A DNA stretch of 63,762 nucleotides, from IMG/VR virus record IMGVR_UViG_2571042862_000001; one strand, written 5' to 3'. This DNA comes from a virus (Duplodnaviria > Heunggongvirae > Uroviricota > Caudoviricetes). Below, one piece after another: positions 7,691 to 56,953 of this stretch. Within the stretch, counting starts at the first letter, position 1; every line of letters begins with the position of its first letter. The translations under genes were made by a program, and so were the position numbers. The notes under the pieces were generated by a model. It was given only the letters and a program-made list of their open reading frames with translations, did not search any database and had not been told where the DNA came from.

Positions 7691-8572
7691 TCAGCGTCCT
7701 GAATCGGTATACCCCCATACAAAACCAGGTTGGACACTAAGGTCTGATAGCTTTTCAATCCCCACCTGTGGAATGAAGTCGGTAGCCCGAAAGGGCACCC
7801 ACAGACGGGTATACGCACCCTCTGTGGACTCCTTTCTATCCTGATTTGGGCATTTATGCGGCGGGAGACGAAGACGCATTTCACCTTTATCGATGTAGCA
7901 CGGTAAACCATGTTCGAGCTTTTCATGAGCCAGTCGGATGTGTGCCGCCAGCTTCATAAATTCAGTATCAATGGCCATCTGTTTAATCGTTTCATAACGA
8001 CGCTCAGCCTGATCTTCACGAGTACCACTAACATCGTTATAAAGCTCACACTGATAAGCGAATTCCCAAAAACGCAAATCAACGATCGCTTCTTTGAATT
8101 CCGCGTCGTCTTCAGGTGGCAATGCTGCACGGCGCATCTCCAGCATTTCCATTGCCCAACCATCAAGCGGCACGATACGCCATTGATAAGGTACTCCCTC
8201 TACAGGCACCTCAATATCGTCAATGAACGGTTCCACTTCCAGGACCTGGATATCTTCAGCCAGAGCATTCATATCGCAATCGTAATAATGCTCTTTACCG
8301 CAATGTTTACAGGTGTAGGTGAATGTCTCGACCGGTGTTTCACGGGAGCCGGTAAATATCCACCATAACGCGGTAATCCGGTCCTGCGCCGTCCATGTCA
8401 GGGGATCATGTTTCGCGGGTTCAGCCAGCAAGGCTTTTAAATACGCCGTTGTCTGTTGTTCTTGTTCCTCCGGTGTTATCGAGTTGAAACGCATCGCATC
8501 AGCAATATTTGGCTGACGGAACTGGATCAATTCAGTTGGCCGCGATGGTAGCGGGAAAAGGGGTAAAAGCAT
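7691..8572 (-). CDS. tail morphogenesis protein
   Basis: 293-aa ORF in tail operon; no motif recognised. Confidence 0.4.
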   Translation of the reverse strand: MLLPLFPLPSRPTELIQFRQPNIADAMRFNSITPEEQEQQTTAYLKALLAEPAKHDPLTWTAQDRITALWWIFTGSRETPVETFTYTCKHCGKEHYYDCDMNALAEDIQVLEVEPFIDDIEVPVEGVPYQWRIVPLDGWAMEMLEMRRAALPPEDDAEFKEAIVDLRFWEFAYQCELYNDVSGTREDQAERRYETIKQMAIDTEFMKLAAHIRLAHEKLEHGLPCYIDKGEMRLRLPPHKCPNQDRKESTEGAYTRLWVPFRATDFIPQVGIEKLSDLSVQPGFVWGYTDSGR

Positions 8573-8586
8573 CCTTGCTCCTTAAT

Positions 8587-9198
8587 TCAAAGAGAAAAAC
8601 TAAAGCCCAGAAGGGAAGCCAAAGAACTTGAGGATTGGTTAAACGTGCTGTGCAATGCGAAGGTCATTGGGAATGACTTAAATTCCGTAACCTGATCCCG
8701 CGCATAGGTGACATCGCCGGTAGTGACCGGGAATACCGTCATCTCATTTTCCAGTTTGGTTAAGCCGGAAGACAGCAACCGATAAATACGCACATTGAGC
8801 AAATATTTAGACGGTATATTCCCGGTACCGTCCGGATTGATCACCCGACTTTTTGCCGTCTTAAACCAGTCCAAAACGAGGCCATCAACGGTATCCCTGA
8901 CCATCATTGTTATCTGCCCAGGCGAACGCTCTGTTGGTTGAAGGATATTCCCTCCGCCGATTTTAATCGTTTCATATTCGATGCTGTAATCGTGGTAGGT
9001 AATGTCTTTGGCAAAGAAGTCTGCCCCCTCCAGTCCATCAACTTCGACAGAGAACTGCCATCCTTGCGCGAACAGCATTTTGTTCATGATGATTGACGTC
9101 AGCTTACCAACTTCCCGCTCACCAACGCCGGAGCCAAATAATGTCGTCGTTAATGCCGAAGATACATAAGACTTTACTGAAGCAACATTAAGCCCCAT
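8587..9198 (-). CDS. tail structural protein (possibly tube)
   Basis: 203-aa ORF in tail operon upstream of the tape-measure-like gene. Confidence 0.35.
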   Translation of the reverse strand: MGLNVASVKSYVSSALTTTLFGSGVGEREVGKLTSIIMNKMLFAQGWQFSVEVDGLEGADFFAKDITYHDYSIEYETIKIGGGNILQPTERSPGQITMMVRDTVDGLVLDWFKTAKSRVINPDGTGNIPSKYLLNVRIYRLLSSGLTKLENEMTVFPVTTGDVTYARDQVTEFKSFPMTFALHSTFNQSSSSLASLLGFSFSL

Positions 9199-9208
9199 AT
9201 CAGCCCCC

Positions 9209-9799
<591 letters not shown>

Positions 9800-9929
9800 T
9801 TAACCGATTCTACGAGTAGTCATTTGTTCATTGAGTAGGAATATTGTTGTCTGGGGGGTAATCAGTGTAGGTGGAATGAGGGATATGATATGGTTATCAC
9901 ATAATCAGGTTGTTTTGAGTAAAACAATA

Positions 9930-9956
9930 AAACGCCCTTTAATGGGCGTTTTTTTA
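9930..9956. terminator. bidirectional rho-independent terminator
   Basis: hairpin aacgccctttaatgggcgtt flanked by A-run and T-run. Confidence 0.6.
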
Positions 9957-9984
9957 AAACTTAAATTGACTATCCTTTCAAATA

Positions 9985-10764
9985 CTATTTTAATTCTATG
10001 TAATTTTTAAATTCTCCCTCATATTTATACATGATGCTATCAAATCCTTCCATTACATCAACGAATTGTTGTGAACATTCCGGCTTCCAAGGCGTACACT
10101 TACGAACCATATCCATTTTTTTCTTATCCTTCGTTGTATCGACTAAGGATAGGTACCCTATAAAATTCATCATCTGAACAGGATCTTGATTTGTGAATAT
10201 ATATTTGACGTTTTGCTTAGTAGGTGAAAAAGAATCAAAAGCAGGGAACATATATTCACCAGAAAAAGAGAGTGCAGCATCAATGACGTCTGTTGCAGGA
10301 GTGCAGTTGCTCAGAATTGGCACTAAGCTAAAATTAGCACCTGAGCACACTGCATATATATCATCCCCTTTTTTTAGTTTTAACAGAGAGTCTTGCTTTG
10401 AATCCAATATTTTCAATTTGATATAATTTAGTGGCGTTGCATTTTCCCCTGGAGTAAATAACTCTACAATTGGTTTATTATTCACCATTCTTATGGATTT
10501 TATTTCACCATACACAATTGGAATTGTGTTCCATTTTTCCTGAGCAGCAAATTCATTATCTTTAAAATCATTAACCAACTCAGATGGCAAATGATAACCA
10601 AATTGATTGTTCATTGCTTTCGAAGCAAATCCAGACAAATAGAATGCCCTTACTAAATCATAATCTTTCTTTGAGGTAGAAAGCCAATCTGGCAATTTAT
10701 TATCAGCTATCGCGCTTCCAGCAAAAATAGCACAACAAAATGTTATTACATTAAATAATTTCAT
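9985..10764 (-). CDS. secreted protein with signal peptide (superinfection-exclusion Sim-like position)
   Basis: ORF visibly AT-rich; signal peptide MKLFNVITFCCAIFAGSAIA from internal Met (track ORF 9985..10797). Confidence 0.5.
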   Translation of the reverse strand: MKLFNVITFCCAIFAGSAIADNKLPDWLSTSKKDYDLVRAFYLSGFASKAMNNQFGYHLPSELVNDFKDNEFAAQEKWNTIPIVYGEIKSIRMVNNKPIVELFTPGENATPLNYIKLKILDSKQDSLLKLKKGDDIYAVCSGANFSLVPILSNCTPATDVIDAALSFSGEYMFPAFDSFSPTKQNVKYIFTNQDPVQMMNFIGYLSLVDTTKDKKKMDMVRKCTPWKPECSQQFVDVMEGFDSIMYKYEGEFKNYIELK

Positions 10765-10771
10765 TTTCCAT

Positions 10772-11089
10772 TCACTCATTAATCGGTTTAAACTCACTAA
10801 TTAATTCACCAAGACTATTTGGGTATGCTTTATAAATAACATACTCCGAAGAGCCATCTGAATATTGGTAAACCCCATAACAGACCAGTTTATTTATTCC
10901 TTTCTGAATAGTTTTTTGATTATAAGAATCAACCACTGTTATTCCATATGACGATAATATTTCGTTATATTCTTCAATAAGAGCTTTTCTTGTTTCCACT
11001 GAATTACAATCTACCTTCGAAAAGTCAACTTCATCAGCAAAAACATTAAATGTTAAAAAGGAAAGCACTAAAAACAAACGAATCAGCAT
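10772..11089 (-). CDS. small secreted protein
   Basis: signal peptide MLIRLFLVLSFLTFNVFA; AT-rich; same operon. Confidence 0.45.
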   Translation of the reverse strand: MLIRLFLVLSFLTFNVFADEVDFSKVDCNSVETRKALIEEYNEILSSYGITVVDSYNQKTIQKGINKLVCYGVYQYSDGSSEYVIYKAYPNSLGELISEFKPINE

Positions 11090-11110
11090 AAATCCACTCC
11101 TACGCATGGA

Positions 11111-11242
11111 TTAATAGTCATTGATCGCAAAGGCGTAAACTTGCCAAAGGTATTTCGTATAATCGGTACAAATCTCCTTTACGCTTGATGCTGCATTAAC
11201 AGTCCCAGCCATAAATAATAACGATAGTAATAGTTTTCTCAT
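11111..11242 (-). CDS. small secreted peptide (43 aa)
   Basis: Not in ORF track (under 60 aa); ATG preceded by aggtgagg RBS; MRKLLLSLLFMAGTVNAAS signal-like N-terminus. Confidence 0.35.
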   Translation of the reverse strand: MRKLLLSLLFMAGTVNAASSVKEICTDYTKYLWQVYAFAINDY

Positions 11243-11338
11243 TATAACCTCACCTGCCTTATAACCCATTTAGGGTACATATTTTCGCCTTTAAAAAAAA
11301 GAGGTTATTAGATCCAACTGTGTATTTATTAAGCAGAT

Positions 11339-11355
11339 AATGCTCTAATAAATTT
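11339..11355 (+). promoter_or_regulatory. C1 repressor operator (immI promoter)
   Basis: AATGCTCTAATAAATTT, 16/17 match to ATTGCTCTAATAAATTT. Confidence 0.7.
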
Positions 11356-11519
11356 GTATTTTTAAGTCACGAATGCTATCTTTTCGCATCATATTGACCT
11401 TTTAATCGTTCAGGCTTATAGTTCCGCCGTCGTAGCAAATTCTGCGACCGGGTTTAGCAGCCTGAATGATTGTGCGGACAGCCGCAGATATCCGATATTG
11501 CGGTATTTTTGTGTCCGTA

Positions 11520-11640
11520 AAACCGCGTTACGCCCAAATTATGGTGGGACGTGATGGGGAGGCTTCGGCCTGCTGGTTTCACAATCGCCAGTCTGCTAAC
11601 CCCGTCACGTCCTGCCACCTGTTTAGCAGCGGGTAGCAGG
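11520..11640 (+). ncRNA. c4: c4 antisense repressor RNA region (approximate bounds)
   Basis: Non-coding leader between operator and icd with mutually complementary short elements (ggacgtgatgggg vs ccccgtcacgtcc); position as in P1 immI. Confidence 0.35.
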
Positions 11641-11669
11641 TTGTTAAACCTGATTGTGAGGCCGTAACT

Positions 11670-11891
11670 ATGGTTAATGCCAATCCTTGCGCACGCCCAG
11701 AATTCATCTGGCGTTTCTATTCCTGTAAAAAACACCACTATCACTTCGTTATCGCAGCAACTGAAGACGAAGCACGCTCTCAATTGCCTGATGGCCCCTG
11801 CATTTTTACTGCCCGTTTTTCAACTAACTCGCGCAATTCACTTAGTTACTGGAGCCTCCCCTTCTCTGCCGACGTTCAGGGGGGTTTATGA
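11670..11891 (+). CDS. icd: Icd cell-division inhibitor
   Basis: 73-aa ORF directly upstream of ant, overlapping it by ATGA. Confidence 0.7.
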   Translation: MVNANPCARPEFIWRFYSCKKHHYHFVIAATEDEARSQLPDGPCIFTARFSTNSRNSLSYWSLPFSADVQGGL

Positions 11892-12931
11892 AAAAACCTC
11901 TCGTCACCCGTAATGACATAGCCGAAGCGATCGCCCTGCATACTGCCTGTATACCGACACGGGAGATCCCCGGCGCAATTGCCAACTATTTCATGATAAC
12001 CAGGCGTTTTTATACCCGAACAGATAAGGCTGTGATCAACAGGCTACTGATAGCCGAGATCAGGGATTATTTGATTGAACAAGGACGTCTACGTTACGCA
12101 ACGGTGGCAGCAGAAATGAGAAAGGAGGCACATAGAATGACCAGTAATAATTTGAATGTTAAAAAACCAGCACCTGTTGCTTCAGCAACGCCAGCACCAG
12201 CCGTGAATGTCATCCCCACCACCGGAGACACAATCGACAGCCTGACACTGTTAAAGATGGTCAATGAAGCGCGTAAGTTATGTGGGGAACCAGAGGTTCG
12301 GAACAACAAATTCATCGAAAAAATACTCGACGAATTAGAAGGTGAGGACGGTTACACAAAAAGTGCAACCGTGCCGCCAGGTGGCGGTACGCCTATGGTT
12401 GTCATAACCATGACCTACAAACAAGCCCTGCGAGTCGCCGCGCGCGAATCGAAAGCGGTCCGCCGTTCGCTGATCGACAAACTGGAAGAATTGCAGCAGG
12501 CAAACTCCCCTACCCCATCGATCCCCCAAACATTACCAGAAGCCCTACGCCTGGCTGCCGAGTTGGCAGAACAGAAATTGCAGCTGGAACAACAGCTGGT
12601 GGCCGCAGCCCCTAAAGTCGATTTTGCCGACCGGGTATCAGTGGCTAATGGAATCCTGATCGGGAACTTTGCAAAGGTCGTTGGACTTAAGCAAAACGCC
12701 CTTTTCTCATGGTTGCGCCAGAACGGCATTCTCATGGCTTTTGGTGCGCGCAAAAACGTACCGCGCCAGCAGTACATTAACGCCGGGTATTTCACGGTGA
12801 AAGAAGTGGTGCTGGATGATGAAAATGGCTACCAGATACGGCTGACGCCCCAATTAACGGGTAAAGGCCAGCAGTGGTTAACTCGCAAGCTACTTGATGC
12901 TGGTTTGTTAAAACCAGTAGCAATAGGTTAA
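11888..12931 (+). CDS. ant: antirepressor Ant
   Basis: 347 aa; C-terminal Ant/KilAC-type domain shared with kilA product (LPEALRLAAELAEQK...GKGQQWL). Confidence 0.8.
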   Translation: MKKPLVTRNDIAEAIALHTACIPTREIPGAIANYFMITRRFYTRTDKAVINRLLIAEIRDYLIEQGRLRYATVAAEMRKEAHRMTSNNLNVKKPAPVASATPAPAVNVIPTTGDTIDSLTLLKMVNEARKLCGEPEVRNNKFIEKILDELEGEDGYTKSATVPPGGGTPMVVITMTYKQALRVAARESKAVRRSLIDKLEELQQANSPTPSIPQTLPEALRLAAELAEQKLQLEQQLVAAAPKVDFADRVSVANGILIGNFAKVVGLKQNALFSWLRQNGILMAFGARKNVPRQQYINAGYFTVKEVVLDDENGYQIRLTPQLTGKGQQWLTRKLLDAGLLKPVAIG

Positions 12932-12942
12932 CAAAAGAAAAA

Positions 12943-12968
12943 ACCTGCCAGCAAACTGGCAGGTTTCT
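12943..12968 (+). terminator. rho-independent terminator after ant
   Basis: cctgccag-caaa-ctggcagg followed by tttct. Confidence 0.6.
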
Positions 12969-13008
12969 GAGCAGATCGACCAACCCGATCTGGATCGAGT
13001 CAGAAAAA

Positions 13009-13025
13009 TTTGCTCTAATAAATTT
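13009..13025 (+). promoter_or_regulatory. C1 operator upstream of kilA-repL
   Basis: TTTGCTCTAATAAATTT. Confidence 0.6.
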
Positions 13026-13094
13026 CGTTTTCTAAGTGCAAAGAATCACCATTTCGAGCTGGTGATTGAAGGTTGATGCAAATTTGGAGAAAAA

Positions 13095-13895
13095 ATGCAA
13101 CAAACATTCAATGCGGATATGAATATATCAAACCTTCATCAAAATGTCGATCCTTCAACCACTCTGCCCGTTATTTGTGGTGTTGAAATTACGACCGACC
13201 GCGCTGGCCGTTACAACCTTAATGCTCTACACAGAGCGAGCGGACTCGGTGCCCATAAAGCGCCAGCTCAATGGCTAAGAACGCTGTCAGCTAAACAGCT
13301 CATCGAAGAGCTTGAAAAAGAAACTATGCAGAATTGCATAGTTTCGTTCGAAGGCCGTGGCGGCGGCACTTTTGCCCATGAATTGCTCGCAGTGGAGTAC
13401 GCTGGTTGGATTTCTCCCGCGTTTCGGCTGAAGGTAAACCAGACATTTATCGACTATCGAGCTGGAAGATTACAACCTGCTATTCCGAAGAGCCTCCCAG
13501 AAGCTCTCCGTTTGGCTGCCGACCTGGCAGAGCAAAAGCAACGGCTGGAGCAAAAAATGCTGATGGATGCACCTAAAGTCGAATTCGCCGAACGCGTTGC
13601 TACCGCCAGCGGGGTTCTAATCGGCAACTATGCCAAAGTGCTCGGCCTGGGCCAAAACTATCTCTTCACCTGGCTGCGTGATAACGGAATTCTGATCGCA
13701 ACCGGTGAACGCAGGAACGTCCCCAAACAAGAATACATATCCCGTGGGTATTTCACCCTTAAAGAAACCGTGATCGATACAAGCAATGGAAGCAGGATTT
13801 CTTTCACGACTCGTATAACCGGCAAAGGTCAGCAGTGGCTGATGAAGCGATTGCTTGATGCTGGTGTGCTGGTACCTGTCGCGGCAACGCGCTAA
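13095..13895 (+). CDS. kilA: KilA (KilA-N domain plus Ant-like C-terminal domain)
   Basis: 266 aa; N-terminal KilA-N-like region; C-terminus paralogous to Ant. Confidence 0.8.
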   Translation: MQQTFNADMNISNLHQNVDPSTTLPVICGVEITTDRAGRYNLNALHRASGLGAHKAPAQWLRTLSAKQLIEELEKETMQNCIVSFEGRGGGTFAHELLAVEYAGWISPAFRLKVNQTFIDYRAGRLQPAIPKSLPEALRLAADLAEQKQRLEQKMLMDAPKVEFAERVATASGVLIGNYAKVLGLGQNYLFTWLRDNGILIATGERRNVPKQEYISRGYFTLKETVIDTSNGSRISFTTRITGKGQQWLMKRLLDAGVLVPVAATR

Positions 13896-13924: not shown

Positions 13925-14767
13925 ATGCTGGCTAAAGTCACTTTCCTGAGCTGTATAACGATGAGCGATTTTACTTTTTCTGGCTATGAATTGGCCTGCT
14001 TTGTAACACACTCCGGTCTATCCCGTAGCGCCGGGCATATCCTGTCGCAATGTGCAAATCTCGCGGCAACAACCAGTGAATACTTCATTCACAAGCCTCA
14101 CCGCCTGATCGCGGCAGAAACTGGTTATAGCCAATCAACCGTCGTTCGTGCATTCCGTGAAGCTGTAAACAAAGGAATCCTGTCTGTAGAGATTGTTATC
14201 GGCGATCACCGTGAACGTCGCGCTAACCTGTACCGGTTTACACCATCCTTTTTGGCCTTCGCACAACAAGCCAAAAATGCGCTGATTGAAAGCAAATTAA
14301 AGATCTCTTCAGCGGCAACCAAGGTTAAAGCTGTTCTCGCTAAGACATTGGCTTTATTTAATTTTTTATCCACACCCCCATGTCAAAATGATACCCCCTC
14401 CCCCTGTCAGGATGACGTGGCAATAAAGAATAAGAAGTCACAAGTTAAAAAAACAAAAAGATCAGTTTCCGGCGGTGCCGGAACGACCAGACTCAAAAAA
14501 TTGACTTCATGGATCGCTGAGGCAAAAGCAAAGGCTGACAATCTGCGGTTATCCAAAAAACGCGCTCAAAAACATGAGTTCAAGCAGAAAGTAGAGGCGG
14601 CAGCGCGGAAATATGCTTACCTGAAGAACAAGCGTTCTCCTGATATTGGCGGGATATCAAACTTCGATAATCTGCCGCATTGCATGACGGTAAACGAAGC
14701 TCTGGATATGGTCCTATCTACAAGAAAAGAAAAGGAATTTTATATTCCAACTGGTTTTCGCGGATGA
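13925..14767 (+). CDS. repL: RepL lytic replication initiator
   Basis: 280-aa ORF immediately after kilA as in P1 lytic replicon. Confidence 0.7.
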   Translation: MLAKVTFLSCITMSDFTFSGYELACFVTHSGLSRSAGHILSQCANLAATTSEYFIHKPHRLIAAETGYSQSTVVRAFREAVNKGILSVEIVIGDHRERRANLYRFTPSFLAFAQQAKNALIESKLKISSAATKVKAVLAKTLALFNFLSTPPCQNDTPSPCQDDVAIKNKKSQVKKTKRSVSGGAGTTRLKKLTSWIAEAKAKADNLRLSKKRAQKHEFKQKVEAAARKYAYLKNKRSPDIGGISNFDNLPHCMTVNEALDMVLSTRKEKEFYIPTGFRG

Positions 14768-14862
14768 TCGCGAATGATAGAATCTTTACGTGTATTTAAC
14801 GCTCAATACACACTATTTTGTCACCAGTATTATTTTTAACGTTTTTATAGGTAACTTTTTCC

Positions 14863-15378
14863 ATGAAAAAAGTAGTTTTAACGGCCCTTCTGGCATGTGC
14901 CTTGGGGGTTGCTGGGACTGCCTCCGCATATCAGCACACACTCTCCTTAGACTTTGCCCAAGGAAGCGCAACGGTTAAAGGCGGAGATATAAAAGATCCA
15001 AAAGGCGTGAATATTAAATATCGCTACGAAATGGATTCTACGTGGGGTGGATTAGCTTCGGTCACTTACGAAAAGTCAAACACAAACCTATGGAATGCCG
15101 CCAAAGCCAAGGTTGAGTATGCCTCATTTACTTTTGGTCCGTCATACAGATTCAATGAATTAATGAGTGCATACGGCTTGGTGGGTTTAAGCCATGCGGA
15201 TGCAACAGCAAAACTGAATGGACAGTCATATGCTGGCTTTGGAACCGATTTTGCTTATGGACTTGGGCTTCAATTTAACCCATCTCCGCAGTTTGCAGTT
15301 GATCTCTCGTATGAACGTTCTAAACCAGGTGATCTAAGCAATAGCATTTGGATGCTTGGTGTCGGTTACCGATTTTAA
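14863..15378 (+). CDS. OmpX/Ail/Lom-family outer membrane beta-barrel protein
   Basis: signal peptide MKKVVLTALLACALGVAGTASA; motifs NIKYRYE, GLGLQFNP and C-terminal GVGYRF as in OmpX/Ail. Confidence 0.85.
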   Translation: MKKVVLTALLACALGVAGTASAYQHTLSLDFAQGSATVKGGDIKDPKGVNIKYRYEMDSTWGGLASVTYEKSNTNLWNAAKAKVEYASFTFGPSYRFNELMSAYGLVGLSHADATAKLNGQSYAGFGTDFAYGLGLQFNPSPQFAVDLSYERSKPGDLSNSIWMLGVGYRF

Positions 15379-15387
15379 CTATTTAGT

Positions 15388-15415
15388 CCCTCTGCCCTAC
15401 GCAGAGGGATTTATA
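15388..15415 (+). terminator. rho-independent terminator
   Basis: tccctctgc-cctac-gcagaggga then T-rich tract. Confidence 0.6.
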
Positions 15416-15425
15416 CTTTGCTCTG

Positions 15426-15689
15426 GTGATATTCGTTATGTTCATTGAGACTAACGCTATGACTATCCTGGTATCTATTCCCATCTATATACTAATTGGT
15501 GGACTGATATACGCATTAAGTCGATATATTTTGCGAGCTAATGCAGAAATGGCCTGGTGGGATCGTTTTTGGATAATGATTTTTTTTGGCATATTCTGGC
15601 CATTAGGGATCATGTTTGTTGCAACATTTCTTCTGATGTGGATATTCACCCTTCCAGGTGATTTCTATAGAAAAAAAACCAGACATTGA
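15426..15689 (+). CDS. small integral membrane protein
   Basis: 87 aa, two hydrophobic segments. Confidence 0.35.
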   Translation: MIFVMFIETNAMTILVSIPIYILIGGLIYALSRYILRANAEMAWWDRFWIMIFFGIFWPLGIMFVATFLLMWIFTLPGDFYRKKTRH

Positions 15690-15876
15690 TACACCCGCTG
15701 CGGTGTGCTTGAGGCTATCAGCTTCAGGTATTACCCGAAAAGCAGATAGAAGAAAGCCCCAGTAAACATTATGCGTCCCGCACAACGCTTAACATTAACC
15801 GGGGCCATACCTATGCTTAGCGTACTTAGATTAATCCTCTCCTCTGTCAAGGAGCAAGGAATTTTTTACTGCACTG

Positions 15877-16509
15877 CTATGCCGCCTTTCCCGTTATAGA
15901 TTCAGCAACCAGAACAACCCCATGCTTACTTCGATCTGGGTGTTCACTCCATATCTCGGATTCAGGAATACTTACCCCGTCATAGCAAACACGTTCGCCG
16001 TCAAACGGGTAATACTGAGCGGCATCGGTGTCGAGGATAAACACTTTTAGCTCGGAAGAGCGACGGGCGATGTGTTGCCAAAGAGCTTTTCCACCTTCGT
16101 ATTGCTCATTATCACTGAGCAAAACAACACCAGCTTTTGAGGCTACGGTTTCGTAAACAAAAGTGGCTAAACCGACATCCCGGACGATTCCATCAACCAC
16201 GATACCTTCAATCTGGGCAACATCGCTATCCTCCCAGAACTTCCTTACCAGTACGCCTTCAAGCTGCGGGCGACGTTGAAGTTCAAGAGTAGCGACAACC
16301 TTATGCCGCATATCACCATCGATAACAGAAGGCGCAGCCTCTATTACAGCTGCAAATGGGGTTTTGGAATCCCATATAACCTGGTAAAGCACACCCTGGA
16401 TGGTAACGCCGTCCAGGATCGAAAATCGACGAGCGACAGTACCCGGGGAGTACGACATTGGAATCACAGCCATTTTAGAGTCCCCCTTTAACAGTACAGG
16501 CACAAACAT
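15877..16509 (-). CDS. virion morphogenesis protein
   Basis: 210-aa ORF, last gene of head/tail operon. Confidence 0.35.
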   Translation of the reverse strand: MFVPVLLKGDSKMAVIPMSYSPGTVARRFSILDGVTIQGVLYQVIWDSKTPFAAVIEAAPSVIDGDMRHKVVATLELQRRPQLEGVLVRKFWEDSDVAQIEGIVVDGIVRDVGLATFVYETVASKAGVVLLSDNEQYEGGKALWQHIARRSSELKVFILDTDAAQYYPFDGERVCYDGVSIPESEIWSEHPDRSKHGVVLVAESITGKAA

Positions 16510-16602
16510 CTACCTCAATACTTGTAGTTTATTAGAACATTAATAATCTAGCATAAAACTCCAGACAATGTTATCGATGCATGTTTATATAAAATAGTTA
16601 TA

Positions 16603-52553: not shown

Positions 52554-53186
52554 ATGACCAAAATTAACTATCAGGCACTGCGTGAGGCGGCAGAACGTGC
52601 AATTCCGGCAATGGAACGCCTGTTAATGTTGCCAGTTGATGATGATCTGATAAGCGAACAGGAACTTAAAGATTACGGTTTGGATATTGATGCGCTCAAC
52701 GCCTTCAAATTTCTGGCCGGACCAGTAACCGTGCTGGCACTGCTGGATGAACGGGAAAGAAACCAGCAATACATAAAACGCCGCGACCAGGAGAACGAGG
52801 ATATTGCGCTAACGGTAGGGAAGCTGAGAGTTGAGCTTGAGGAAGCAAAATCAAAACTCAACGAGCAGCGTGAGTATTACGAAGGTGTTATCTCGGATGG
52901 GAGTAAGCGTATTGCAGAACTGGAAGCGCGGGAAATAAAACCAGCCAAAGGTGAAGTTCTGGTCGTTGTATCTGGTTTTACTGGTTGCGGAAAAAGCGCC
53001 ATTGCCGGGGAAATAGAAATCGCGATGAAGGCTATTGGTGTATCGGTTAAGTGGACTAATGGCGATGCAGAAAAGCGCATGACTGGCGCTGACTGGCTGA
53101 CTGCGATTGAGATGTACAAACCAACTGTGCGCATCGTGGAAGTTAATGTGCCCCGCGCCGCTGGCATTCGCATCAAAGGAGAGTGA
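52554..53186 (+). CDS. Ead/Ea22-like protein (paralogue C)
   Basis: N-terminus TKINYQALREAAERA. Confidence 0.45.
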   Translation: MTKINYQALREAAERAIPAMERLLMLPVDDDLISEQELKDYGLDIDALNAFKFLAGPVTVLALLDERERNQQYIKRRDQENEDIALTVGKLRVELEEAKSKLNEQREYYEGVISDGSKRIAELEAREIKPAKGEVLVVVSGFTGCGKSAIAGEIEIAMKAIGVSVKWTNGDAEKRMTGADWLTAIEMYKPTVRIVEVNVPRAAGIRIKGE

Positions 53187-53340
53187 TATGGCTAAGTACA
53201 TCGTGACTATCGAAGGATTTAATGATTGCAAGGTTGTTGAGTTTGAAGCAGACACGCCAGAGGATGCCGAAGAAATAGGCAGAGACATATTCTATGAAGA
53301 ATGCAACTACGGCGTATCACCTGCTACAGAGGACTAACAC

Positions 53341-53925
53341 ATGACCACTTTAACCGACAAAGAACTGATTAAAGAAATCAAAGAGCGTATCAGCAGCCTG
53401 GACGTTCGAGACAATATTGAACGCCGGGCTTATGAAATTGCACTGGCATCGCTGGAAGCAGATCCAGTTGCTTATATTTTCAAACATCCGGCTGGAAAAT
53501 TATTCTGGGCTTTAACGGATGAAAGCAATAAAGAGCAATCGGACGTTATTCCTGTTTATGCCGCCCCTCCAGTGCCAGTAGTACCTGAAGAAAAACCAAT
53601 GCCTAATCCTCTTAAAATGTACGCGGTTGATGCTGTTGCCGCTATTGCAGAGGTGAGAGGCTGGAACGCCTGTCGTGCCGCTATGCTTCAGAGTCAAGGT
53701 AATTGCATTAAGGATGGTTGGATAAGCTGTAGTGAGCGAATGCCGGATAGCAAAACAGCCGTTCTTGTTGCCAGGGAGTTTGACAGGAAAGGTGACTGGC
53801 GAATGAAATGGGCGACTTACATACCGGGGCATCCTGACGCTAATGATGGTTGGATAATTCCTGGTGCGTCGTGGAAACCGTCACACTGGATGCCGCTACC
53901 AGAACCGCCGCAGGAGGCGAAATGA
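53341..53925 (+). CDS. DUF551-like phage protein
   Basis: C-terminal WISCSERMPDS ... W..W.PLPEPP pattern. Confidence 0.45.
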   Translation: MTTLTDKELIKEIKERISSLDVRDNIERRAYEIALASLEADPVAYIFKHPAGKLFWALTDESNKEQSDVIPVYAAPPVPVVPEEKPMPNPLKMYAVDAVAAIAEVRGWNACRAAMLQSQGNCIKDGWISCSERMPDSKTAVLVAREFDRKGDWRMKWATYIPGHPDANDGWIIPGASWKPSHWMPLPEPPQEAK

Positions 53926-55142
53926 TGGATGTAAAAGAGAAGGTTTTGCAGGTGATGCGTTCCCGGGCTGCCCTGCAAGATAAAGCTCTCGGCGGGGAAT
54001 ATCCATTCAGGATGGCAACCTGGAATCTGCGGTTGGCAATGGAGAAGGAATTTCCTGATGAAGAATGGCGTTCGGCAGATTTGCGCAAAATTCTTATGGA
54101 GATGGCTAAAGACGGAACAGTATCCAAAGATACCCATGCCAGCCGGATTGGTCAGGCGGTATGGAGACTGGAGGTGAGGTAATGGCTAACCTGCAACTTG
54201 CCGTCAAAGGTGAATACTTCGATGCCATGATTCGCGGAGAGAAAACAGAAGAGTATCGCCTGTGTAATGACTACTGGAATAAGCGAATCATGTTCCGGGA
54301 ATATGACCGCCTGATTATCACAAAGGGATATCCGAAGCGCGACGATTCCAGCCGCAGAATTGATGTTCCGTATGACGGATATGAAATCAAGACAATCACA
54401 CATCCACACTTCGGTGATAAACCGGTAAAGGTGTTCGCGATAAAAGTGAAGATTAATAGCTAAATTTCAATTAACGCGGAGTAATTATGTGGCGCGGTAA
54501 TAATCATGGCGGAAGCCAAATGATACTTACCGAATATCAGCTAGACCACAAAACCAATAAATCACGTTCAGTATATTTGCTTCGGCACAATAGCCGCGTA
54601 AGGAATACCGTGCTGGAGCAAAATCTGACCGTCGAAATGGATAATTTTGGGAACTTCAAGCCAACAATTGCGCTTGATGATTTCCCGCGTGGTTTAAGCG
54701 AAAGAGAAGCAATGCTGAAATTAGCAGAATGGCTACAAAGATTAAGCATTGCTATTGAAGATAACTGGTCTGAACCTTAAATTTATATGATGACACTAAA
54801 ACATTTTCTTGACCGCCCATTATGGGCGGCGGCCGCAGGCTATGACTTTAATTATATGGATTGCATGTCTTATACTGCCAATGCATACGACCATTCGTTC
54901 AGCCTGCTATTTAATTCTTTAAGAATATTGCCGGAAACAGAAGTTGGAGAGCTTCATTTATGGCTATTGGGCTTTATCGCGGCTGTCGTTGGTATTGCTG
55001 TATGGCCTTTTATTTTCTGGCTGGTGGCTGTTGTAGTGTGGTTTAAGTGCAAGACATACCGGAAAAAGTATTTCTTAGGTGATGGAATGACTGATATTGC
55101 CAAAATGAACATTGAAAAATGGACTAAGGAATGTGAAAAGAA

Positions 55143-55874
55143 ATGGCGCAAAAAGAAATGACCAGAATCACTGAAGAGCGTATATCAGAGATTATTTCCC
55201 GTATCGAAATGTATGGTCACGGCGCTGGATACACGGCAGATGAGGTATTGGAGCTTGCCCAAATAGCGTTAGCAACCTGCAAAGACGGTGAGAGTATAAA
55301 GCTGATTGACTTGTTGGTGCAGGAGCTGCCAAAGCGTGGAGGGTGGCCTGATGATGTGCTCGATTGTCGCATGGTTAGAGAGGACTGCTGTGAACCATCA
55401 TATGGTTTCTTTGCTTTTGGCTCTGATCCAGAGAAAAGCCCGCGTGGGCGCAATTTTTGCCTTGAGGTCAGGCTTCCGATAAGTAACCTTGATCGCGAGG
55501 AATACACGGAAATAATTTCGCGCAAACAATACGAAGAGGCTCTTGAAGCATCCAATAAGTTAAATTTTGAGCAATGGCTGGGGCAACAACGCGAAAAAAT
55601 CGACTTGGACTGCGGTTGTGTGTCTACTGAAACATTCATGCACTGGTTGCGGGTAGCTTATGAGGATGGCAACCATCCGGATTTTCCGGATAGTTCCCAA
55701 CAATCGCCCAAGAAAAGCGTAAAAACCACTCTGGAAAGAGGCTATCTTGAGGCCGCATTAAAGATTAAGCCGGGCCATACGCTAGGCGTCATTGATGCCA
55801 TGTTGGTTCATGAAATGGCGAAGGCTTTATTGCCGCTGGTGGCTGATAAAATTCCGAATAAAGCCGATATCTGA
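55143..55874 (+). CDS. hypothetical protein
   Basis: 243-aa ORF followed by terminator. Confidence 0.35.
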   Translation: MAQKEMTRITEERISEIISRIEMYGHGAGYTADEVLELAQIALATCKDGESIKLIDLLVQELPKRGGWPDDVLDCRMVREDCCEPSYGFFAFGSDPEKSPRGRNFCLEVRLPISNLDREEYTEIISRKQYEEALEASNKLNFEQWLGQQREKIDLDCGCVSTETFMHWLRVAYEDGNHPDFPDSSQQSPKKSVKTTLERGYLEAALKIKPGHTLGVIDAMLVHEMAKALLPLVADKIPNKADI

Positions 55875-55885
55875 TCACCATGCTA

Positions 55886-55917
55886 AAATCCCCTCAATTC
55901 ACAGAGGGGATTTTTGT
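55886..55917 (+). terminator. rho-independent terminator
   Basis: aaatcccctc-aattcaca-gaggggattt then ttgt. Confidence 0.65.
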
Positions 55918-56186
55918 ATATGTTGCATAGAGTTTTATGGAAAAGCGTTATTGTCGGCGCGATACTGGCTATATCTGGGTGTGCAATGGTGCAATACAAC
56001 GACGGTGAAAAGGTAAGCATCCAGTCAGATGGCTGGTATGGGATGGATAGTCTGCAAAAAACCGCAGATAAAGCCTGTCAGCAATATGGGAAGTCTAAAG
56101 CAGTATATCAGCATAGCGCGAACGCTAACCCTCATCTAGCGCCCGGTTCTGGTGTTCAGAATACCATCTGGAAATGTGAGCCTTAA
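55914..56186 (+). CDS. small lipoprotein
   Basis: lipobox AISGC after hydrophobic leader. Confidence 0.5.
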
Positions 56187-56188
56187 AT

Positions 56189-56440
56189 ATGAGCGACTGG
56201 AATATTGCAGCTAAAAGTCAGGAAGAACGGGATAAGGTTAACGTTGATCTGGCTGCCAGCGGTGTGGCGTACAAAGAGCGATTGAACATACCTGTCATAG
56301 CTGAACAGGTAGCCCGCGAGCAACCAGAGAATCTGCGCACCTATTTCATGGAACGGCTACGGCACTACCGGCAGTTAAGCCTCCAGTTGCCAAAAGGGAG
56401 CGATCCGGTGTATCAGAACGAGGATGCACCAAAAAAATAA
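56189..56440 (+). CDS. hot: homologue of DNA polymerase III theta subunit (HolE)
   Basis: [36 protein letters not shown] parallels E. coli HolE. Confidence 0.85.
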
Positions 56441-56527
56441 CGGCAAGATGGGGGAGAAATGTGATTAACCCCCAGCGTGGCGCGCCTACAAACCCCGCTT
56501 TCACAAACTATGCCTTTTCAATGTATA

Positions 56528-56543
56528 CTGTATGAATAAACAG
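56528..56543 (+). promoter_or_regulatory. LexA (SOS) box upstream of humD
   Basis: CTGTATGAATAAACAG matches CTGT-N8-ACAG. Confidence 0.8.
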
Positions 56544-56563
56544 TATCATTAAGGTAAAACGCT

Positions 56564-56953
56564 ATGGGCTTCCCTTCTCCTGCGGCGGATTATGCAGAGA
56601 GCCGCATTTCTCTTGATCAGCAACTAATCAGACATCCTTCCGCGACCTACTTCATGCGGGCGGCAGACAGCCATCACCGTGAGGGAATATTGCAAGGTGC
56701 TTTGCTGGTGGTTGATTCCTCACTTACTCCGGTTGATGGTTCACTGCTTATATGCGCTATGGATGGTGAATATCGCATAAAGAGATACAGGAAATATCCG
56801 CGCCAGCACCTGGAGGATTTAAGCACCGGGAAGAAAGAGGCGTTACCAGTAGATGACGATGGATGCACGGGGAGTAATGCTGTTTTTGGTGTGATCACTC
56901 ATGTCATCAATGATGTCCGAAGTGGGGAATTTGATGATTGTCCGGTGATTTAA
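56564..56953 (+). CDS. humD: HumD, UmuD' homologue
   Basis: GFPSPAADYAE..HPSATYF.. aligns with UmuD from its cleavage-site region onward. Confidence 0.85.
   Translation: MGFPSPAADYAESRISLDQQLIRHPSATYFMRAADSHHREGILQGALLVVDSSLTPVDGSLLICAMDGEYRIKRYRKYPRQHLEDLSTGKKEALPVDDDGCTGSNAVFGVITHVINDVRSGEFDDCPVI

Follow-up and report, generated by a model that had tools for sequence, protein, structure and literature searches.

The superimmunity genes of phage P1, sim, confer superinfection exclusion of P1 (PMC9177967 and PMC8546580, citing Kliem & Dreiseikelmann 1989 and Devlin 1982), and PMC2409434 names simC as the superinfection-exclusion gene with reference to Maillou & Dreiseikelmann 1990. simA, simB and simC were non-essential for lytic growth of P1 in a genome-wide CRISPR interference (CRISPRi) screen (PMC10695390), and simABC belongs to a set of eight low-G+C regions that vary among P1-like phage-plasmids (PMC9603915). 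Here, we analyzed a 63,762-nt stretch of viral DNA (IMG/VR record IMGVR_UViG_2571042862_000001; the whole stretch is called the window below), in which positions 9985-11269 on the minus strand most probably represent simC-simB-simA, the simABC 'superimmunity' operon of a P1-type phage-plasmid; judging from the sequence, we put the probability of this assignment at about 93%. In the early P1 sim papers (1982-1990), the simC product was reportedly a precursor processed by removal of its signal peptide, and expressed Sim is said to exclude superinfecting P1 after adsorption, before the phage DNA is established in the cytoplasm.

Sim shares with T4 Imm and Sp, P22 SieA and HK97 gp15 that a phage envelope protein permits adsorption and stops genome entry. 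These four are, however, integral inner-membrane proteins, whereas mature SimC is devoid of a hydrophobic segment (maximum 1.25 on the scale given below), and profile searches found no sequence similarity between them and Sim. T5 Llp, phi80/N15 Cor, Ltp of the Streptococcus phage TP-J34 and TraT of the F plasmid are exported and act outside the cytoplasm, as is predicted for Sim, and Ltp reportedly blocks DNA injection after adsorption. In contrast to these lipoproteins, the Sim proteins have no lipobox. Llp and Cor mask the protein receptor FhuA, whereas P1 uses lipopolysaccharide (LPS) and no effect of Sim on adsorption has been reported. A TraT-like lipoprotein does occur at the same genomic position, but belongs to the rival P7-type cassette and not to the sim cassette.

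The sim operon and its cassette slot

In a megablast search of phage genomes, window positions 9700-11500 matched P1 (NC_005856, 46501-48301) with 98.6% identity over 1801 nt, and base-by-base comparison gave 26 substitutions and no gaps. The P1 genes beneath this match are pmgC, simC, simB and simA, followed by the C1 operator Oc4, so that the annotated P1 features could be placed in the window by subtracting a constant 36,801. The P1 sim region (NC_005856 46786-48070; M34382) and that of the window have the same operon, flanks, terminator and low G+C content in common. SimB is identical in all 105 residues (100%), SimC in 258 of 259, the single change being N215K, and SimA in 40 of 43 (P7S, G33W and H34Q; a further change in the annotated N-terminal extension makes four in the 52-aa form). 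The corresponding PHROG matches were phrog_14355 for SimC (E 2e-191), phrog_14329 for SimB (E 3e-71 over profile positions 1-105) and a match at E 1e-20 for SimA. The same operon (9985-11269) is also 100% identical to NZ_CP122664.1 57324-58608, which is part of a 67,952-bp plasmid of the porcine E. coli ETEC4073; there, RefSeq lists the two larger sim genes as 'hypothetical protein' and leaves simA without annotation.

The sequence-only reading had proposed a trio of small secreted proteins encoded by consecutive minus-strand reading frames of 259, about 105 and 43 aa, and these frames are indeed present. The open reading frames (ORFs) span 9985-10797 (from a GTG), 10772-11107 (111 aa) and 11111-11269 (52 aa), and internal ATG codons at 10764, 11089 and 11242 yield products of 259, 105 and 43 aa. 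The precursors of SimC (9985-10764), SimB (10772-11089) and SimA (11111-11242), all on the minus strand, are thereby defined. P1 RefSeq instead chooses upstream ATG codons (264, 111 and 52 aa; 9985-10779, 10772-11107 and 11111-11269), with the simC ATG at 10779 lying 15 nt further upstream. Shine-Dalgarno sequences are better at the internal ATGs, with AGGAG located 8 nt before 11089 and GGTGAGG before 11242. The 259-aa start of simC is also used in GenBank M34382 (1990, 'sim region ORF 2') and in the 777-member protein cluster P0001, and the length of the SimB PHROG profile, 105 positions, agrees with ATG 11089. The mature Sim proteins are the same whichever start is chosen. As the earlier reading had also remarked, the 43-aa frame was missing from the ORF track, because it is shorter than the usual 60-aa listing threshold.

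All three Sim products are predicted to begin with a Sec-type signal peptide ending in an AXA site, as the sequence-only reading had proposed. This was assessed by a home-made test combining n-, h- and c-regions with the -3/-1 rule, which is crude and not SignalP. The rule-based cleavage positions are MKLFNVITFCCAIFAGSAIA/DNK in SimC (AIA/DNK, after residue 20), MLIRLFLVLSFLTFNVFA/DEV in SimB (VFA/DEV, after residue 18) and MRKLLLSLLFMAGTVNA/ASS in SimA (VNA/ASS, after residue 17). Only 4 of the 84 ATG-initiated ORFs of at least 100 aa in the window passed the same test, two of them being SimB and SimC; three adjacent signal-peptide genes are therefore far from chance. No lipobox ([LVI][ASTVI][GAS]C) was detected in SimA, SimB or SimC by a pattern that recovers LSGC in Upf50.5 of P7, and no later hydrophobic segment is present in the Sim proteins (maximum 19-residue Kyte-Doolittle mean past residue 35, 1.25 for SimC and 0.45 for SimB).

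The surroundings of the operon are those of P1 as well. sim lies between the late tail operon (LPsit-pmgC-tub-pmgB-sit) and immI (Oc4, c4, icd, ant), is transcribed away from c4 and adjoins, back to back, the C1 operator Oc4 that belongs to the c4-icd-ant operon of immI. The late promoter LPsit (9807-9825) and Oc4 (11339-11355), both placed by transfer from the P1 annotation, carry no substitution relative to P1. The three genes have one orientation with 3-22 nt between them, and a terminator-like hairpin on the minus strand (9929-9952; 9-bp stem followed by a T-run, 33 nt past the simC stop) parts them from the late tail operon. Beyond Oc4, the P1 order continues with the c4 promoters, C4 RNA, icd, ant1/ant2 and kilA; Rfam models placed an a1b1 target element at 11416-11468 and the C4 antisense RNA at 11537-11622, both above the gathering score, and in the ORF list of 8500-13500 plus-strand frames of 347 aa and 266 aa come after the three minus-strand ones. 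What had been described as a sim-like module at the P1 sim position thus turned out to be sim itself, with the same P1 neighbours. By its sequence the operon is intact, separately terminated and encodes predicted exported proteins.

The promoters PsimB (11241-11269) and PsimA (11307-11333) were likewise transferred from P1. A promoter scan of the sim region returned 5 sites against 8.8 expected and is uninformative because the DNA is AT-rich; PsimA and PsimB thus stay predictions from the P1 annotation. Two substitutions relative to P1, at 11333 and 11336, fall in or next to the -35 element of the merely predicted PsimA (TTTAAT in P1, CTTAAT in the window), directly beside Oc4.

The operon occupies a slot (9828-11340) bounded by LPsit and Oc4, with 33.1% G+C compared to a mean of 47.4% (standard deviation 2.8) for windows of the same length, the lowest value in the whole 63.8 kb. 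Along the profile, G+C is 0.45-0.54 in the flanks but only 0.30-0.35 from about 9750 to 11400, and G+C at third codon positions is 0.23-0.36 in the sim genes versus 0.47-0.53 in pmgC, tub, pmgB and ant1. In local BLAST comparisons of 9200-12000 with P7 and three P1-like plasmids, homology ended at 9827/9828, immediately upstream of LPsit, and restarted either at 11341, at Oc4 (P7 type), or at 11103 in the types with a long SimA-domain gene. The P7 cassette consists of the lipoprotein gene upf50.5 (lipobox LSGC; weak sub-threshold match to TraT, E 7e-5) followed by a gene for a DUF5384 protein. pRHB12-C02_3 encodes a 172-aa 'simA domain protein', a 168-aa protein and an SH3-domain protein, and p2_115106 and pM121-2 encode proteins of 215 and 158 aa. 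The slot accordingly holds at least four alternative cassettes. In an all-against-all comparison of the cassette proteins, the only links were those of SimA with the 172/215-aa proteins and of the 168-aa with the 158-aa protein; paralogy of SimB and SimC was rejected (BLASTP E 0.85).

A P1-like metagenome contig (Logan SRR14689322, L009) has the gene order Oc4, 107-aa gene, simB, simC (83% identical), intact 215-aa gene, 158-aa gene, pmgC. The equivalent of window positions 9904-11080 (minus strand) is embedded there at 89.6% identity between the 107-aa and the intact 215-aa SimA-domain genes, without simA. These sequence relationships show simB-simC moving as a two-gene module. In this contig the simBC module is thus followed in tandem by the 215+158-aa cassette, and the place that simA takes in the window is occupied by the gene for a predicted 107-aa membrane protein (209-532) with no Pfam match.

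Among plasmids in PLSDB, the whole sim operon occurs in 137 (97-100% identity). The P7 cassette was counted in 168 of these database plasmids, the 215+158-aa type in 81 (125 with partial matches). Among complete E. coli genomes, 127 of 5426 contain the whole operon, and of 253 places with a whole or partial match, 249 are plasmid-borne. Horizontal acquisition, which the sequence-only reading had suggested from its correctly noted AT-richness relative to the flanks, is supported by the unrelated cassettes in the same slot of P7 and other P1-like plasmids. The low G+C content and recently acquired status of sim had been stated before (PMC6906374, PMC9603915), as had P1 exclusion by sim, and every element of that reading's observation and interpretation is already in the literature. 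The sim operon in the window is accordingly a known feature, real but ordinary; what is added here is the reading of simA as a relic and of simBC as a module, a catalogue of slot cassettes and the link of SimC to PF12869. The pmgC/Oc4 slot appears as an exchange point for envelope-protein cassettes, which could guide a search for further exclusion genes.

SimC, SimB and a proposed exclusion in the periplasm

SimC consists of a predicted 20-aa signal peptide (codons 10705-10764) and an acidic mature part of 239 aa (27.4 kDa) with four cysteines. The pairs Cys140/154 and Cys223/230 (259-aa numbering) are kept in distant homologues down to 28-39% identity, all of which start with signal or anchor sequences; the conserved pairs fit an oxidising periplasm, where disulfides would be expected. 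Relatives of SimC are few. A single-sequence search gave 4 matches and a profile search 13, unchanged at a laxer E-value, and an exhaustive HMMER search of 1.84e9 representative proteins gave 15 clusters at E <1e-3. Full-length relatives number only three, P0002 (about 84% identity), P0005 (39%) and P0014 (28%), and truncated or chimeric SimC fragments are common among the remaining protein-database matches.

The central part of SimC points to a known domain family. PF12869 (tRNA_anti-like) is a family with an oligonucleotide/oligosaccharide-binding (OB) fold, found for example in the C-terminal domain of C. difficile TcdC (PMC3575817). SimC matched it with 19.0 bits (E 1.1e-3), not reaching the gathering threshold of 23.5, and its relative P0002 scored 15.4 bits. 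In the exhaustive search (phmmer), however, SimC found P0012 (E 9.6e-9), P0014 (6.4e-5) and P0015 (7.3e-4), which score 53.8, 25.9 and 43.7 bits on PF12869, respectively. When the SimC clade was aligned with these three profile to profile (hhalign), the probability was 98.9% (E 3e-17) over SimC residues 60-157. By this comparison, the PF12869 OB-fold domain has its homologue in residues 60-157 of SimC, and SimC and the PF12869 members share the motif NDFxxNExAAxxK[WY] ... G.I ... KKGD.I.A.C.G ... C. Unlike these members, SimC is extended by helical regions at both ends, a segment on the N-terminal side and a C-terminal domain of about 100 residues, which are confined to few close relatives. 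PDB sequence searches with the SimC and PF12869-like profiles returned nothing meaningful, NCBIfam gave no matches for the Sim proteins, and the PADLOC-DB defence models gave none at E <=0.01 for either the Sim or the alternative cassette proteins. On an unrelated phage-like metagenomic contig, the gene of the distant relative P0015 adjoins a pair of HTH_3 repressor-type genes. Exclusion genes are classically found beside repressor genes.

SimB comprises a predicted 18-aa signal peptide and a mature part of 87 aa with two cysteines; wider relatives belong to phrog_13054, a 276-aa profile. Counting substitutions against six other alleles, we found the strongest purifying selection of the three sim genes in simB, with no nonsynonymous versus 3-4 synonymous changes among P1-type alleles and a ratio of nonsynonymous to synonymous rates (dN/dS) of about 0-0.18, the value of 0.18 being that against the L009 contig. 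simC is also under purifying selection (dN/dS 0.19-0.41), and in simA the ratio is about 1; the numbers behind these estimates are small, and their direction is consistent. SimB is probably a co-inherited, strongly conserved exported partner that acts together with SimC.

Mature SimC would then be a soluble, disulfide-bonded 27-kDa periplasmic protein in which N-terminal helices precede a PF12869-type OB fold (residues 60-157) and a helical domain forms the C-terminus. The binding partner of the OB-fold domain may be a component accessible only in the course of infection, either a tail-tip or ejected protein, with the Sit transglycosylase/tape-measure protein as a candidate, or an envelope structure that is crossed. 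Positioned in the periplasm, SimC could hinder penetration of the tail tip or the trans-envelope DNA conduit, and genome transfer would be aborted after adsorption. Masking of the receptor is unlikely, since the P1 receptor is LPS, and so is a channel block of the Imm/SieA/gp15 type, because mature SimC is without a membrane segment.

Several points weigh against reading the locus as a functional periplasmic exclusion operon of this kind. The signal peptides were judged by our crude rule only, and SimC by itself stays below the Pfam threshold for PF12869. AlphaFold2 models of SimC from 2- and 4-sequence alignments reached predicted local distance difference test (pLDDT) values of 32 and 38 and were unusable, so that its domain picture is built on sequence homology alone; the strand-strand-strand-helix-strand-strand order in the centre of these low-confidence models is compatible with an OB fold and carries no weight. 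simC is split by frameshifts in three relatives, the phages 673R5 and 813R1 and plasmid pNJS001-1. The step 'after adsorption, before DNA entry' is taken from titles and secondary citations, and exclusion was reportedly shown with multicopy clones, so that the effect from a single-copy prophage may differ in strength.

It may also be asked whether the natural role of Sim is another envelope function, namely exclusion of unrelated phages or a host-fitness 'moron' activity, with P1 self-exclusion being an effect of overexpression. The multicopy origin that is reported for the exclusion phenotype would fit, as would the exported proteins and lipoproteins of the alternative slot cassettes (the weakly TraT-like protein, E 7e-5, and DUF5384) and an Ail/Lom outer-membrane protein in another variable slot of the element. 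Nevertheless, we consider such a role unlikely, as the published phenotype is specific exclusion of P1, at least by the titles cited in PMC8546580 and PMC9177967, the SimC relative P0015 sits beside a pair of helix-turn-helix (HTH) repressor genes, the classic position of an exclusion gene, and the defence-system models gave no matches.

simA and its longer relatives

Within the sim operon of P1 exclusion, simA stands apart from its two neighbours. In the 43-aa form, SimA has a predicted 17-aa signal peptide followed by 26 residues. Residues 10-47 (52-aa numbering) correspond almost residue for residue to the N-terminus of the 172-/215-aa proteins of other P1-like plasmids, with 84-85% identity over the whole of SimA; past residue 47, SimA diverges and then stops. 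This relationship was resolved at the DNA level by comparing window positions 11103-11269 with the respective regions of three other sequences (L004 2649-3167, L005 2493-3140, L009 1921-2568). At the junction, the long genes read GAT GAA TCC ATG CGC AAG AAG, while P1 and the window read TAT TAA TCC ATG CGT AGG AGT GGA TTT ATG. According to this alignment, the stop codon of simA is a GAA to TAA change within an older, long reading frame, the simB start annotated in P1 (ATG 11107) corresponds by homology to a Met codon inside the long gene, and the AGGAG ahead of ATG 11089 comes from junction sequence. Residues 24-109 of the long proteins have a weak match to PF14566, just below threshold, which crosses the breakpoint; this speaks for the long form as the intact version. 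The long SimA-domain gene is intact in about 125 other P1-like plasmids, and about half of the PLSDB plasmids matching the query match only its simA end.

simA differs from the other alleles by 3-4 nonsynonymous versus 0-2 synonymous changes, a proportion of roughly 4 to 1, and in plasmid pEA16-1_1 of E. albertii its frame is shifted by a 1-bp indel, which suggests that it behaves as an unconstrained, neutrally evolving sequence. Taken at the level of sequence, simA looks like a vestigial 5' stub of 47 codons, left from a displaced gene for an exported protein of 172-215 aa, and SimA is probably dispensable.

This has consequences for the idea of a three-component exclusion machine in which SimA, SimB and SimC are all working parts, as implied by the 'trio' of the sequence-only reading and by the P1 annotation 'putative superimmunity accessory function'. 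The shared orientation, the spacing of 3-22 nt, the signal peptides on all three products, and the strong Shine-Dalgarno sequence and open frame of simA in most alleles would be in line with such a machine. We nevertheless regard it as quite improbable, given that simA corresponds to the first 47 codons of a longer gene ending in the GAA to TAA change at the simBC junction, that its changes are mostly nonsynonymous and include the frameshift in pEA16-1_1, and that simBC of the L009 contig lacks the upstream simA stub. The 'trio' of the sequence-only reading hence stands as three adjacent genes, but is better described as a two-gene module, simB-simC, plus a simA stub whose signal peptide was inherited from the displaced longer gene.

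That the cassette as a whole is a decaying, non-functional remnant is very improbable: simC is split by single-base indels in 673R5, 813R1 and pNJS001-1 and truncated or chimeric SimC fragments are frequent in the protein database, but in the window no sim frame is broken, purifying selection acts on simB and simC, and 137 plasmids keep the whole operon at 97-100% identity. In vB_EcoM-673R5 and pNJS001-1 the single-base indel lies in an A7 run (10369-10375), and 813R1 is split elsewhere; these splits could be real slippage and pseudogenisation, with simC often dispensable, or errors of long-read sequencing.

Returning to the functional operon, we tentatively propose a wider scenario that is possible but still doubtful as a whole. 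Here, simA would be a fossil, simBC a portable periplasmic module, and SimC the founding and experimentally characterised member of exported PF12869-type exclusion proteins, used in unrelated temperate phages too (e.g. P0015), that act in the periplasm by binding a component of the tail tip or ejection conduit of the arriving phage. If simA is a relic, the functional unit for studying the block of P1 DNA entry is simBC, and the PF12869-related OB fold of SimC may aid work on how Sim exerts this block. For the window itself, the analysis confirms a P1-type phage-plasmid with an intact classical exclusion operon, which matters mainly for annotation; in most plasmids, RefSeq and its annotation pipeline PGAP label the sim genes as 'hypothetical protein' and omit simA.

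Other regions of the window compared with P1

Outside the sim operon, the window departs from P1 at several places. Positions 14704-16602, where P1 has rlfA, rlfB and pmgF, gave no megablast match to P1; on the plus strand (14863-15378), this region encodes a 171-aa outer-membrane beta-barrel protein of the Ail/Lom family with a signal peptide (PF06316, 81 bits; PF13505, 87 bits). The plasmid maintenance region (22135-26842), which encodes ParB (22190-23191), ParA (23208-24404), a T5orf172-domain protein (24573-25382) and a Rep3-type initiator (25675-26559), was not matched by P1 in the same search, so that the partition/replication module differs from that of P1.

A stretch of 6.8 kb reaching from the pmgT region to phd (49962-56802) found no match in the P1 derivative compared and is mosaic. 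It combines parts known from P1-like phages (humD/UmuD-like, hot, UpfN and polynucleotide kinase) with parts of lambdoid and Shiga toxin (Stx) phages (ead/Ea22-like, DUF551 and DUF4752), and it corresponds to the published variable region 8 of P1-like phage-plasmids. Finally, the window carries an extra tRNA-Tyr (GTA) on the plus strand (34152-34238) between tRNA-Asn and tRNA-Thr, which adjoin in P1.

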